From Abditibacteriaceae bacterium (GTDB lineage: Bacteria; Armatimonadota; Abditibacteriia; Abditibacteriales; Abditibacteriaceae): DNA of 64,000 bases. Within the stretch, counting starts at the first letter, position 1. Each line of letters begins with the position of its first letter. Shown piece after piece: positions 3,001 to 6,000 of this stretch. The DNA is taken from NCBI GenBank assembly GCA_031372065.1, contig JANMKN010000043.1, forward strand, positions 1-64,000, in the 5' to 3' direction. The position numbers are program-made.

Positions 3001-6000
3001 GTGCGTCAATCGCTGGAAAGAAGCCTTCGACGCCGGTTTCGCGCCGCAAATTGTGCTGGAAGCGACGCACGTTTCGGCACTCGAATGGGTAAATCTGAGC
3101 GATTTAAAAGCGCACGCGGTGAAATAAGAACGCGGAGCCACCGGCTCCGCGTTCCTATTCTGCCTTAGCGTTCTTTGGGTTTGGCGGCTTGGCCGGTGCG
3201 CGCCGATTCGTAGATGGCGTCCATCAGTTCGCTTTGGATTACGCCGTTGACCGGGCTGGTTTTAGCGTCGGCGCGACCTAAAATAGCGTCAATAAAGTTG
3301 TCGTTGGGCGTGTTGGCGGTGCCGACAAGTTCCAATTCGTCGGCGGGCACTTCTTTGCTGCCTTTGAAAACTTTAATCCAACTGCCGCTCCAACCATCCA
3401 CGTCCACGCGGCCATTGTCGAAGGTGTAAACCATCCCCGCAGCGCTGGCCGGGCAGTTTCCGGCGATGGTCATCGTTGCTAAGACGCCGTTTTTGAAGCG
3501 CACATTCACGGTGCCGTTAATGTCAACCGGCGCGCCGAGGTTATCTACGAAGGCGAAGACCGATTCGATGGGCTGTTCGACGCTCCACACCAGCGAGTTG
3601 AACATATGCGCGCCCGAATCATACATCTGGCCGCCGCCCGACAAGGCCGGGTCTTGACGCCATGATCCTGTGGTGCCCTTGAGCCAGTTTTGCGTTTGCC
3701 AGCCGGTAATTGTTTCCAGTTTGCCCAGTTCGCCGCTACGAATTATCTCGCGCAGCAGGTTAAAAGCGGGCGTGCAGGGCGTGTTGTAGCCGACCACGAA
3801 GATTTTTCCGGCCTTTTCGACGGCTTTAGCCAGTTCGTGCGCCTGACCGGAATCGGTCACCATCGGTTTTTCCATCAAAATGTGGCAACCGGCTTCCAAG
3901 GCTTGCAAACCGTGTTCGAAGTGCATGGTGTGCGGCGTCACGATGGAAACTGCGTCGGGTTTGATTTCGGCATACATCTTCGCCGGGTCGGTGAACACGG
4001 CGGGCGCCGGTTCATAATCTTTCAAATTGCGCTCGATGAACTTGTTGACTTGTTCTTCGGACACGTCACACAGCGCGACGATTTCGACATCGGGATTGCC
4101 TTTGTAACGATTGGCGTGGGCGCCGGCCATACCGCCGCAGCCCATGATTGCTACACGAACCTTGCTCATAAAACCTGTTCCTTTGGGGGAATTTTTTTTG
4201 CGGACGCGCGTAGTTTGTGCGCCTGCGCCATGCAAAACAAGGCTTTTGCGACAAATTTCATAGGCTGGAAAAAGAGAATTTGTCATGCTGAAAGGCATCT
4301 TAATGCCTTGAAGAATCCCTGTAGGCCGTCTGTAACCCCGTTTCTCTCTTGGTTTGCCACATCGATTGCCTACTATCGGGCATTTACCTCTTAGGGTCGC
4401 TCGTTTAGTCCTTGTATGAGCTCGTTTGCACCTTGTATACGCTCGTTTATGTCTTGTATGCGCTCGTTTATCCCTTGTAGGTGCTGGTTTATGTCTTGTA
4501 GGTGCTGGTTTATGTCTTGTAGATGCTCGTTTATGTCTTGTAGGTGTGCGTTTACCTGTTGTATGCGCGCGTTTGAAGATAAACATAGACATACAAGGCA
4601 TAAACGTGTCACTACAAGAGGTAAACGAGTGCATACAAGACATAAACGCGCATCTACAAGACATAAACCAGCGTATACAAGGTGTAAACGAACGCATACA
4701 ATGGATAAACGAACGCATACAAGGTGTAAACGTGCACCTACAAGATATAAACGAGCGCATACAAGATAGAAACACGCCATCAGAGGCTAAGTCACAGGAT
4801 AAAAATGCGGTTTTTTGAGATTAGTAACCTTACGGAGCATGGTTTTGATAAGCGCACTGATGGCCCTCACCCCCGGCCCCTCTGCCAATTCGCTGCGCGG
4901 GAGAGGGGAGATTGAGGCAAATGCTTCCTCTCGTCTCAAATTATTCGGAGCCTTTTACTTTAGACACCCCTCTCCCGCGCAGCGAATTGGCAGAGGGGCC
5001 GGGGGTGAGGGCCATCCGCTATATTGTGCCGATTTCCGCCATTGCTTCGCTGATGTTGGTGAATGAACCCGCGACGAGAATGGTGTCACCGTCTTTTGCC
5101 AAGTGCAACGCGCGCTGCATGGCGTCTTTGACCGAAATTATCACTTCGACCTGACTGCAAAATGGGCGCGCTAAAGCCGCAATCGCATAGGCGCGCGCGG
5201 CGCGTGGCGATTGCGATTGTGTGGCGATGACAATGCGGGCCAGCGGCGCTAAAAGGCGCGTCATGGCCTCGTAATCTTTGTCGGCCAAAATGCCCAGCAC
5301 CAAAATCGTGCGACCCGCTGCGTCGGGAAATTTCTCTGCAAAGGCGCGGCTCAAAAACTCCGCGCCATCGGGATTGTTGCAGACATCTAAAACCACACGC
5401 GGCTTCTCGCTGATGACTTCCACGCGGCCCGGCACTTGAAAATCAATTTCAACAACTGGCGTGTTTAAGGGTTCATTTTGTTCTTGCGCCAAGGCAAAGC
5501 GCGCTGTTAAGGCGGTTTGCCAGTTTATTTTCTGAAAACTATCGGCGGGTTGCGGCGCGTTTTGCACATAAGCCAAGCCGTTTTGCAACGCAGCGCCATC
5601 GTTGGAGGCATCGGGCGCGAAAATCGGCCAGAATTTCGCGCCGATAGTCACGCAATGCGCCGAGAAAATCTCCAGCACTTCGGGTTTGGTTTCCGCCGTG
5701 ACTAAAACGCGTCCGCGACGGGCAATTTCGACTTTATCGCGGGCAATGGCCTCCACGGTTTTGCCCAAACGGTCACAATGGTCCAATGCAACGTGGGTAA
5801 TCACCGAAACCGTTGGACTGGTGGTGTTTGTCGCGTCCCAACGCCCTCCCAAACCGACTTCGAGAACTGCGGCGTCCACTTTCACGCGCGAAAAATGCCA
5901 AAAAGCCAACGCGGTAATCGTTTCAAATTCGGTGGGCTGCCCCAATTCTTCTGCGACAACATCAAGATGCGCTTTGGCCTCGAAGAAAAGCGCGTCCAAA

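Follow-up and report, generated by a model that had tools for sequence, protein, structure and literature searches.

A 21-bp-period inverted-pair array in an Abditibacteriaceae genome: a probable orphan of gene-linked arrays that occur in at least six phyla

The tandem array at positions 4399-4773 of the window (the whole stretch of DNA analyzed, 64 kb of one contig of an Abditibacteriaceae bacterium) is, on balance, probably an orphan copy of the DNA half of a two-part cassette whose protein product would bind its own array. The cassette consists of a tandem array, a sigma-70 promoter, one small gene, and a terminator. The link between array and gene is conserved across phyla, and the period of the array is specific to the gene family while its sequence changes. 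The arrays are real and non-coding, and the only lineage-specific part of the phenomenon is their roughly tenfold expansion in this genome.

Results

Arrays adjoin genes for helical-rod proteins in at least six phyla

The genome contains 83 genes in 14 families of unannotated helical proteins, some with a fibronectin-type domain, and at 62 of 335 array loci a gene of these families is adjacent, the array in most cases preceding the gene's promoter. Of 21 family members that homology alone identified and that have 200 nt or more of upstream sequence, 9 are preceded by an array, versus 29 of 600 other genes (one seed, C135_46415, is an unrelated gene and was removed after this count). Strong promoter matches occur for 32% of cassette genes versus 10% of other genes; they fall between array and gene at 17 of 59 loci, and none lies more than 4 bp inside an array. 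At 80 GTDB loci of a family of 121-aa proteins, lag-21 periodicity was detected upstream of the gene in 58 and downstream in 3 (61 of 80); in two sets of control windows it was detected in 0 of 66 and in 1 of 73 (1 of 139). Every named phylum group includes array-bearing loci of this family, and the cassette is present in at least six phyla. Homologs with no detectable array also occur (19 of the 80 loci of the 121-aa family and 7 of 9 family-1 loci outside this genome). Array sequences change rapidly, as paralogous genes that are 84-89% identical have diverged or unrelated arrays and unit identity is at background once protein identity is below 60%; a weak palindromic motif is shared across phyla by arrays of the 121-aa family (information of 9.75 versus 6.3-6.65 bits). 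Literature searches aimed at this pairing and at known small repeats, covering mainly openly available main texts, returned no description of an array paired with a helical-rod gene.

The rod of these proteins consists of one or two modules of about 110 residues each (a short helix, a 54-residue helix, and a short helix), often with an Fn3 or Ig-like domain after them; the model of a 309-aa protein, whose gene has a 41-bp array, contains the same module twice, then an Fn3 domain. Profile comparison supports module duplication only in families 0-long, 2, and 7; in families 1, 4, 5, and 9 it was assigned by eye. For the 121-aa protein, modeling predicts an antiparallel homodimer with a score of 0.78, against 0.00 for the best control; 20 of 30 solved homo-pairs and 1 of 23 single chains attain the mark used for this score. 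Contact agreement between runs is at least 93%, and pLDDT is at least 87. Its ends are basic and conserved, and 11 of the 14 families are acidic (median pI 4.5-5.7).

The helical module has no sequence match in Pfam, NCBIfam, or the PDB, and its best structural match has a Z of 5.6 with an rmsd of 12.6. In fold searches the Fn3 domain alone was matched, the helical part of the 309-aa model having been queried only with the rest of the protein, and no DNA-binding fold was found in cassette proteins. Matches in the Atlas were hypothetical proteins only, and they point weakly to DUF6261 (score 0.84, 32% of members). Neither a LytTR domain nor a Pfam match to HUH (Y1) transposases was present in 20 cassette proteins scanned, and PADLOC matched none of 18. 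The cassettes are single genes among unrelated neighbors, and their ends showed no terminal repeats, target duplications, or transposase. The 121-aa family, which comprises 777 clusters at 50% identity, has no homolog in viral contigs, family 6 has no phage match, and one plasmid record of 72,556 was found for each of two queries.

Array period largely follows protein architecture, as does symmetry in this genome

In family 0, genes encoding one module plus Fn3 have 21-bp arrays (4 of 4 loci) and genes encoding two modules plus Fn3 have 41/42-bp arrays (9 of 9 loci). Outside this genome the two-module Fn3 family has periods of 41/42 bp in 6 of 6 arrays (8 loci), and in metagenomes 41-43 bp at 32 of 42 loci and 21 bp at none (elsewhere combined, 41-43 bp in 38 of 38 arrays); one-module families elsewhere have period 21 at 58 of 61 loci and in 8 of 10 arrays. 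There are exceptions: 42-bp arrays accompany one-module genes at 4 loci of families 8 and 12 and, in the two sets from elsewhere, at 3 of 61 and 2 of 10 loci; two-module families 1, 2, 4, and 5 have periods of 20/21 bp. Few independent family transitions stand behind the rule. Since a doubled rod module goes with a doubled period, the protein probably coats the array beside its own gene.

Symmetry within the units also varies with architecture. In this genome the mean dyad z is 1.69 for 21-bp arrays of one-module genes (n = 21) and 0.15 for those of two-module genes (n = 20; rank test p = 0.0015, the loci not being independent), and 3.18 for 41/42-bp arrays (n = 20). Symmetry is weaker in metagenome 42-bp arrays (mean z 1.17), and seven scored 21-bp arrays of one-module plus Fn3 genes elsewhere have z of -0.3 to 1.3. 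Conserved half-sites lie about 5 bp to each side of the dyad, and conservation has a period of 10.5 bp in all three array sets (power 1.9-2.7 versus 1.05), which points to selection. The first-pass annotation had proposed that the arrays may act as curved or protein-coated DNA. Relative to shuffles, a 10.5-bp peak stands out in conservation and not in A/T content, so curvature is not the feature that the arrays have in common; a protein coat, judged from period and symmetry, is probable.

The cassette could be real and yet be read by another protein (a LytTR-type host regulator, a nucleoid protein, or RNA polymerase), with the array serving as a phased upstream control element whose period is inherited within each family. 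The position of the array directly upstream of the promoter, the acidity of most cassette proteins, and the exceptions to the period rule all agree with such a reader, as do LytTR operators, which according to excerpts of PMC11347149 are direct repeats two turns apart. We nevertheless think it rather unlikely. About 190 unit families without a common motif make one sequence-specific reader impossible, period doubling accompanies module doubling within a single family, and oriented orphan arrays face gene ends more often than gene starts (29 versus 15) and are thus not placed like upstream elements of host genes.

The best matches of the array at 4399-4773 are gene-linked arrays of family 2

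The array is the inverted pair of about nine plus nine units that had been reported (8.4 and 8.7 by our measurement; Table 1). Its units match their consensus at 85% in the left arm and 81% in the right, with two invariant blocks per unit, and column variability in the left arm peaks at 10.5 bp (permutation p = 0.0002). The offset between arms recurs in this array family, being 11 at seven of eight readable loci and 12 wherever else it was read (10 loci examined), and it is also 11 in a gene-linked array on contig C125.

Table 1. Coordinates of arrays and neighboring features in the window
Feature	Position	Strand	Comment
Adjoining ORF, presumably a Gfo/Idh/MocA-type oxidoreductase	3165..4169	-	Outside the element; gene family with 49 members in the genome
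Left arm, 8.4 x 21 bp, orphan array	4399..4574	+	Blocks GTTT and TTGTA invariant, about one helical turn between them
Inverted-pair junction	4575..4589		Arm offset 11 bp modulo 21
Right arm, 8.7 reverse-complement units of 21 bp	4590..4773	-	
Separate long inverted repeat of another repeat family, presumably REP-like	4863..5015		17 matching places in the genome
Adjoining ORF, taken to be folC-like	5019..6314	-	Outside the element; homologs in 5 of 5 relatives searched
Orphan array, period 42, 21-bp sub-units	9862..10023		
Orphan array, period 41, palindromic unit	12933..13072		Core spanned with zero differences by contigs of three runs
Orphan array, 12.9 x 21 bp	25220..25490		Sisters on four other contigs
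Orphan array, period 41	38342..38466		Match to a gene-linked array on contig C14
Orphan array, period 42, palindromic unit	39476..39574		

Two housekeeping genes flank the array. There is no cassette gene within about 500 bp and no translated match nearby to any of the 83 family genes. In two relatives (G002 and G003) the flanking genes are not adjacent to each other, no array follows folC, and the junction differs from that of the window. No match to one pattern of the window-array unit was found in viral contigs, and an Rfam search that included the separate inverted repeat produced sub-threshold hairpin matches only.

A matrix built from 16 window units and scored against 77 upstream regions ranked C369_1953 first (20.4) and C125_1627 second (18.5), with the third at 4.8; both are family-2 genes with inverted-pair arrays. 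The margin is modest, since the best permuted score was 18.0 against 18.5 for C125, and a third family-2 inverted pair, on C29, scored -13. Unit-by-unit comparison with linked arrays gave 12-15 matches of 21, no excess over shuffle maxima of 14-15, and blastn found no linked-array match. The array has a period of the cassette type (20/21 or 41/42 bp; here 21), 10.5-bp block spacing, and, by small margins, homology to gene-linked arrays, and has no cassette gene within about 500 bp. The modest sequence match suggests that it is an orphan copy of a gene-linked array, nearest to those of family 2. Among 400 other genomes of the phylum, one has the putative family-2 parent protein, for which there are 14 further unnamed database homologs. 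Orphans are common: unlinked sister arrays exist for 43 of the 62 gene-linked arrays, 216 of 335 loci are interior orphans, and of the 273 unlinked arrays, 210 have no match among the linked ones.

In another reading the arrays are transcribed and act as RNA, whether as a guide array whose variable segments are short, as repeats bound by protein, or as a type III antitoxin-like RNA, and the inverted pair forms a long duplex with internal loops. The window pair folds at -121 kcal/mol (DNA parameters), conserved and variable blocks alternate, and inverted period-7/8 arrays have been proposed to form beads-on-a-string RNA (excerpts of 10.64898/2026.10.21.760802). But changes on both sides of the duplex are at or below chance (63 vs 60, 45 vs 45, and 75 vs 103), with no covariation and no consistent bias toward G.T over A.C (G.U); loops are often 0-2 nt; and the array is followed, not preceded, by the promoter. 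Even the 5-nt block that varies most is only 0.36-0.40 off consensus, adjacent units are more similar than distant ones, a pattern of local duplication, and a k-mer test identifies inverted pairs at only 15 of 335 loci, in line with the dozen or so noted before. We consider an RNA function improbable.

The arrays are an expanded class and probably not a mutational, coding, or assembly product

Hundreds of arrays with a 21-bp period had been reported, and both Tandem Repeats Finder (TRF) and an independent lag scan recovered them. TRF (minimum score 50) gave 741 merged loci, with best periods of 21 (165 loci), 42 (88), 63 (52), 20 (24), 41 (20), and 84 bp (14), compared with 18 (25), 24 (17), 15 (56), 7 (54), and 14 bp (70); the lag scan gave 405, 456, 324, and 300 at 21, 42, 63, and 84 bp versus 10 and 17 at 18 and 24 bp. 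As also described, the arrays lie mostly between genes, only 56 of 393 loci being more than half inside a gene by our own gene call. Their units form 188 clusters with no motif in common. The further statement that they are absent from close relatives applies to the window sequence, found in 0 of 40 other genomes, and roughly to density (34.7 lag-21 runs per Mb here; 0 in 400 kb of G002, 3.6 per Mb in 275 kb of G003, and 2.8 per Mb in 360 kb of G039), and fails for the class, as a cassette gene is preceded by a 41-bp array in G001, a genome of the same genus.

The first-pass annotation read the arrays as a lineage-specific slippage product of fixed step. They are instead the upstream part of a cassette found in at least six phyla, their period depends on the gene family, and they are not a free product of such slippage. 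The pure mutational form of this idea, a process with a fixed 21-bp step to which adjoining genes are incidental, is largely refuted, and even with a variant in which the cassette protein generates or mobilizes phased duplications without stable binding, we regard it as very improbable. The preponderance of loci without a cassette gene, a density about tenfold above that of the relatives sampled, and a preference for convergent gaps (61/267 versus 227/2063) would fit it; the linkage of the same gene families in six phyla with family-specific periods, the orphan sisters of linked arrays, and conservation phased at 10.5 bp would not.

A coding role, with the arrays as unannotated genes whose products are coiled-coil repeats of 7 residues, is scarcely credible. 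One frame of the window array gives an I/L heptad, and the antisense strand of 121-aa-family arrays has 70 open frames versus 55 ± 5 expected; but change is not concentrated at any codon position, synonymous fractions are at the null in all three sets with no excess in one frame, there is no 3-bp peak, periods of 20 and 41 break the frame, and the translations share no family. The heptad reading was rejected. An assembly or library artifact arising from k = 21 has a negligible chance of being correct: although 44 of 335 loci are no more than 150 bp from a contig end, where about 13 would be expected, and no listed run contig spans 4399-4773 (X1 depth is 7.9 across bin 4553-4903 and 0 across bin 4202-4552), separately assembled contigs of runs X1, X2, and X3 cover the 41-bp array at 12956-13063 with no differing letters, megabase contigs and the complete plasmid of an isolate contain comparable arrays, and units diverge by about 30% in phased blocks. 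Cultured carriers exist, a Nostoc isolate (NZ_CP117772.1) being one.

Discussion

We favor a model in which each cassette protein would bind its own duplex array cooperatively along one face, as period and symmetry suggest. One module pair, either a homodimer or a fused pseudo-dimer, would cover two turns (21 bp), and head-to-head pairing of fused forms would yield palindromic 41-42-bp units. The promoter-side array may be an autoregulatory or nucleation site. Unequal recombination would rewrite array sequence quickly while binding preserves phase. Cassettes would have multiplied in this genome and arrays would also have spread without the gene, gene-less arrays having more probably been copied alone than left by gene deletion.

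More tentatively, the cassettes may constitute a new selfish or regulatory nucleoprotein system, in which the helical-rod superfamily is a molecular ruler that polymerizes on its own array, one module pair per two turns, so that protein architecture sets period and symmetry; coated arrays might be copied without a transposase, for example as small circles of whole turns, with Fn3 displayed outside the filament. If the proteins do bind the arrays, they have an unrecognized DNA-binding fold and form a widespread yet patchy element that explains a class of bacterial intergenic minisatellites. Binding specificity would co-evolve quickly, because unit identity reaches background below 60% protein identity, while geometry stays fixed. 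The 83 genes and 335 arrays of this genome would then provide matched cognate and non-cognate pairs, with arrays that spread without their gene, and the 21 versus 42 rule is directly checkable with two small proteins.

The closest resemblance is to ParR/parC, TubR/tubC, and Rep iterons, in which tandem phased duplex sites lie beside the promoter of a small gene and the dimeric product coats them and can autoregulate (excerpts of PMC2241845 and PMC6009700, and in part general background). The cassettes do not belong to these systems: they are single genes with unrelated neighbors and no adjoining motor or Rep gene, they are chromosomal, with up to 83 paralogs per genome and hundreds of orphan arrays, and their product is a long rod of helices with Fn3, not a ribbon-helix-helix or winged-helix protein. 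In REPIN-RAYT systems, too, a gene lies beside its own repeats and gene-less extragenic copies occur, part of them as inverted pairs (excerpts of PMC3116915), a trait paralleled here by the gene-less sister arrays. Unlike RAYTs, the cassette gene is not an HUH transposase, its units are tandem with a fixed 21/42 period, and its copies are 70-89% alike where REPINs are near-identical; Y1 transposases are not raised in number (7 here versus 3, 3, 6, and 8 in four relatives).

LytTR-type operators share direct repeats two helical turns apart, adjacent to the -35 box (excerpts of PMC11347149). They have two or three repeats of one family motif, whereas cassette arrays have 5-17 units of unrelated sequence, many of them palindromic. 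Alternating conserved and variable blocks beside a gene are also seen in CRISPR, TIGR, and VIPR arrays, and the inverted-pair layout in the period-7/8 clusters of the Evo-PIN preprint; the periods given for these are 60-79, 18, 5, 10, 8, and 7, and its section 2.3 names neither 21 nor 42 (excerpts of 10.64898/2026.10.21.760802). In place of the unique spacers of CRISPR, TIGR, and VIPR, the variable blocks here are drifting alleles near the consensus at a period of 21/42, and the cassette lacks a known effector fold. In type III toxin-antitoxin systems a repeat array is transcribed with the gene, and a structured RNA is paired with a ToxN-type RNase. Membership in this class was rejected on the position of the promoter (between array and gene where found), the lack of covariation, and the lack of a PADLOC match among 18 proteins. 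Bacterial VNTR minisatellites, STRR, and SDR repeats are intergenic tandem repeats under concerted evolution. Intergenic tandem repeats are enriched generally (excerpts of PMC12418385). Unlike VNTR, STRR, and SDR repeats, the arrays described here hold to a fixed period while their sequence is free; their conservation is phased, and their tie to a single protein superfamily looks obligate.

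The arrays are real and unusually abundant in this genome

The first-pass annotation described a head-to-head 21-bp array in the window and a genome-wide excess of this period and its multiples, and both observations held: the two arms are listed in the table, and periods of 21, 42, 63 and 84 bp predominate both by TRF and in an independent lag scan. Merging left 335 array loci totalling 49.7 kb, and the units of 393 TRF loci fell into 188 clusters. Short tandem repeats of 7 and 14 bp (54 and 70 TRF loci) make up another class in this genome, and lag-7 runs are numerous in one relative (G003).

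Repeats and related features in the window
Feature	Position	Strand	Description
Lipoprotein-like ORF	859-1908		long Pro/Thr-rich tail
Coding repeat in the tail of this ORF	1665-1706		18 bp
Window array, left arm	4399-4574	+	8.4 units of 21 bp
Window array, right arm	4590-4773	-	8.7 reverse-complement units of 21 bp, head to head with the left arm
Long inverted repeat	4863-5015		17 matching places in the genome
41-bp array	12956-13063		exact copy in contigs from three public runs

An assembly artefact is unlikely, since a complete Nostoc plasmid and contigs of megabase size also contain arrays of this kind. The three runs containing the 41-bp array come from one study, and one of them may be the source sample; none of the listed contigs from the public runs spans 4399-4773. 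A relative in run X4 is ~90-95% alike over window positions 13066-13996, 6275-6637 and 4058-4390, and one of its contigs stops at 4390, immediately ahead of the window array. What is special to this genome is the array load alone, with 34.7 lag-21 runs per Mb versus 0-3.6 for the five relatives sampled (two of the samples being small).

Some arrays adjoin genes for small, predicted helical proteins

Clustering the neighbours of arrays, using genes predicted with our own script, brought many small unannotated families to prominence. Seeds chosen by eye, a choice biased towards arrays, were extended with phmmer to 83 genes in 14 families, leaving out one seed that was an unrelated gene. Homology alone recruited 26 members; an array lies within 500 nt in 9 of the 21 with at least 200 nt upstream, versus 29 of 600 other genes. 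The order within a cassette is array, promoter, ribosome site, gene and terminator, and in 17 of 59 loci a strong sigma-70 match separates the array from the gene, whereas in family 6 (about 155 aa) the array directly follows the stop codon (5 of 7 above threshold). One array on contig C69 (L020, G000:C69:7641-7897) carries a single inverted unit mid-array.

Most cassette proteins are acidic. Pfam/NCBIfam named only Fn3, in 2 of 20; in 2 of 18 proteins PHROGs matched the Fn3 part to tail or decoration proteins, and PADLOC gave no match for 18. The 121-aa, one-module protein was modelled with helices at 11-26, 39-92 and 97-101 (pLDDT 89), and its predicted assembly is an antiparallel homodimer (score 0.78 versus 0.00; agreement of 93% or more, pLDDT of 87 or more). 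Among solved pairs 20 of 30 reached the mark used, compared with 1 of 23 among single chains. The modelled 309-aa protein contains this type of module twice, followed by a C-terminal Fn3 domain. Profile comparison backs module duplication in families 0-long, 2 and 7; in families 1, 4, 5 and 9 duplication was scored by eye, without profile support. Among solved structures, nothing clearly matched the helical module.

A Pro/Thr-rich tail closes the proteins of many families; in near-identical paralogues, homology often breaks off within this tail or on reaching the stop codon, and even genes 84-95% alike have unrelated terminators. The lipoprotein-like ORF in the window is unrelated to the arrays. 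In the paralogue pairs C184/C228 (89% identical) and C201/C247 (84%), the arrays have diverged or are hardly recognisable as related, and retain the 21-bp period.

The link between array and gene is old and wide. Among 80 GTDB loci of the 121-aa family, retained from 187 confirmed, lag-21 periodicity was present upstream in 58 and downstream in 3; of 139 control windows, 1 showed it. A score rule identified arrays in 61 of the 80 (Acidobacteriota 32/45, Chloroflexota 13/15, Pseudomonadota 5/6, Bacteroidota/Ignavibacteria 6/6, Verrucomicrobiota 3/3, Cyanobacteria 1/3, other 1/2; groups assigned by hand from record titles), and a weak palindromic motif is common to arrays in Acidobacteriota and in other phyla. 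On the 1-Mb Nostoc plasmid (NZ_CP117772.1 near 965941, L292), a 7-unit 21-bp array lies 118 bp upstream of a family gene at a place where the collection's table has no feature. Among relatives, cassette genes are patchy, three queries matching 3, 3 and 2 of 40 other genomes. The earlier interpretation, a lineage-specific burst of helically phased repeats, thus stands for the reality, phasing and load of the arrays but not for the class, since cassettes occur in several phyla.

Most arrays stand apart from cassette genes

The 335 loci comprise 62 gene-linked arrays, 57 near contig ends and 216 interior orphans. Unlinked sisters of about 70-89% identity, mostly the array alone, exist for 43 of the 62 linked arrays. 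We consider it highly probable that array and gene form a cassette whose arrays have spread as orphans.

The window array is one of a cluster of 12 unlinked loci, for the most part inverted pairs, whose arm offset is conserved at 11-12 bp (modulo 21). Inverted-pair arrays also lie upstream of three family-2 genes (C125_1627, C369_1953 and C29_12215). The window array is most likely an orphan of the two-module, Ig-like subfamily that includes the first two, because a matrix built from its units ranked their upstream regions as the top two of 77 and the array linked to C125_1627 shares its offset of 11. Both scores exceeded those of 60 permuted matrices each, that for C125_1627 by a narrow margin.

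Gene deletion does happen, since a piece of gene scored in two of 41 oriented interior orphans and seven more translated matches lie outside called family genes, two of them adjoining arrays. None of the 41 retained the leader's final 45 nt. For the bulk of orphans, array-only copying seems the somewhat better fit. Terminal repeats and target duplications were not seen at cassette ends. REP-like motifs lie near 29 of 335 arrays versus 36 of 1269 array-free gaps, which is compatible with possible help from HUH transposases in trans.

Cassette genes, too, are followed by REP-like motifs of several types. The long inverted repeat in the window, which we take to be REP-like, overlaps the end of a presumably folC-like gene; the counterpart in a relative (L110/L112, G002:C21:20073-21364) gave matches in three frames, indicating frameshift or sequencing errors.

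Array units suggest a protein-binding site matched to protein architecture

Two blocks are invariant in all 16 full units of the window array, and the variability of these units is greatest at a period of 10.5 bp (p = 0.0002). Variability at this period exceeded that at neighbouring frequencies in all sets, and likewise in 56 arrays of 41/42 bp. Palindromy was above dinucleotide shuffles in three sets (13.0 versus 11.1, 12.1 versus 10.8 and 11.4 versus 10.6 paired positions per 21), and in units selected for dyad symmetry, conserved half-sites flank the dyad at a distance of ~5 bp. This pattern is as would be expected if a two-fold symmetric protein contacted one face of the duplex.

Curved DNA, one possibility raised in the first-pass annotation, does not apply in the form of simple A-tract curves, A/T content having no 10.5-bp peak above shuffles. 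Upstream arrays of the 121-aa family (L027-L106) have an A/T peak at 5.25 bp. These arrays also have 70 open antisense frames versus 55 +- 5 expected, without synonymous signal; a coding reading failed more generally, as change was not focused on one codon position and synonymous fractions equalled the null (49, 34 and 153 arrays). A reading as RNA hairpins found no support either, with covariation absent, wobble bias inconsistent and loops often of 0-2 nt.

Array period and symmetry track protein architecture, a rule carried by few family-level transitions. Within family 0, genes with one module plus Fn3 have 21-bp arrays (4/4 loci), and those with two have 41/42-bp arrays with no 21-bp sub-period (9/9). 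Over 61 linked loci, long periods accompany 16 of 36 two-module versus 4 of 25 one-module genes. We predicted, before computing, palindromic 21-mers for one-module but not two-module genes; the mean dyad z came to 1.69 for the former, 0.15 for the latter and 3.18 for long periods. Outside this genome, periods of 41-43 bp occur in 6/8 and 32/42 loci of the two-module Fn3 family (three of the 32 with fewer than 2 copies), and 21 never does; the rest of the 42 have an unrelated 48 (two), no array (seven) or a short flank (one). Family 9 has period 42 in 5/5 loci with flanks, all from one genome, and one-module genes have period 21 in 58/61 and 8/10 arrays.

On balance we lean slightly towards the cassette's own product binding its array, in which case it would coat phased sites beside its promoter. 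Counted against own-product binding are weak symmetry in the outside sets (the 121-aa family excepted; mean z 1.56), the exceptions to the period rule in families 8 and 12, the acidity of the proteins and the small number of family-level transitions.

Comparison with known systems

Searches of the literature on array-gene pairing and small repeats found no description of such cassettes. Section 2.3 of a 2026 preprint on the mining of intergenic periodic arrays gives periods of 60-79, 18, 5, 10, 8 and 7 (10.64898/2026.10.21.760802). Tests placed the cassettes in neither the centromere-operator/iteron nor the REPIN-RAYT class. In distribution, the arrays resemble REPINs around a RAYT gene; in their inferred working, the cassettes come closest to centromere-operator and iteron arrays, in which the product of the system itself coats phased sites beside its promoter.
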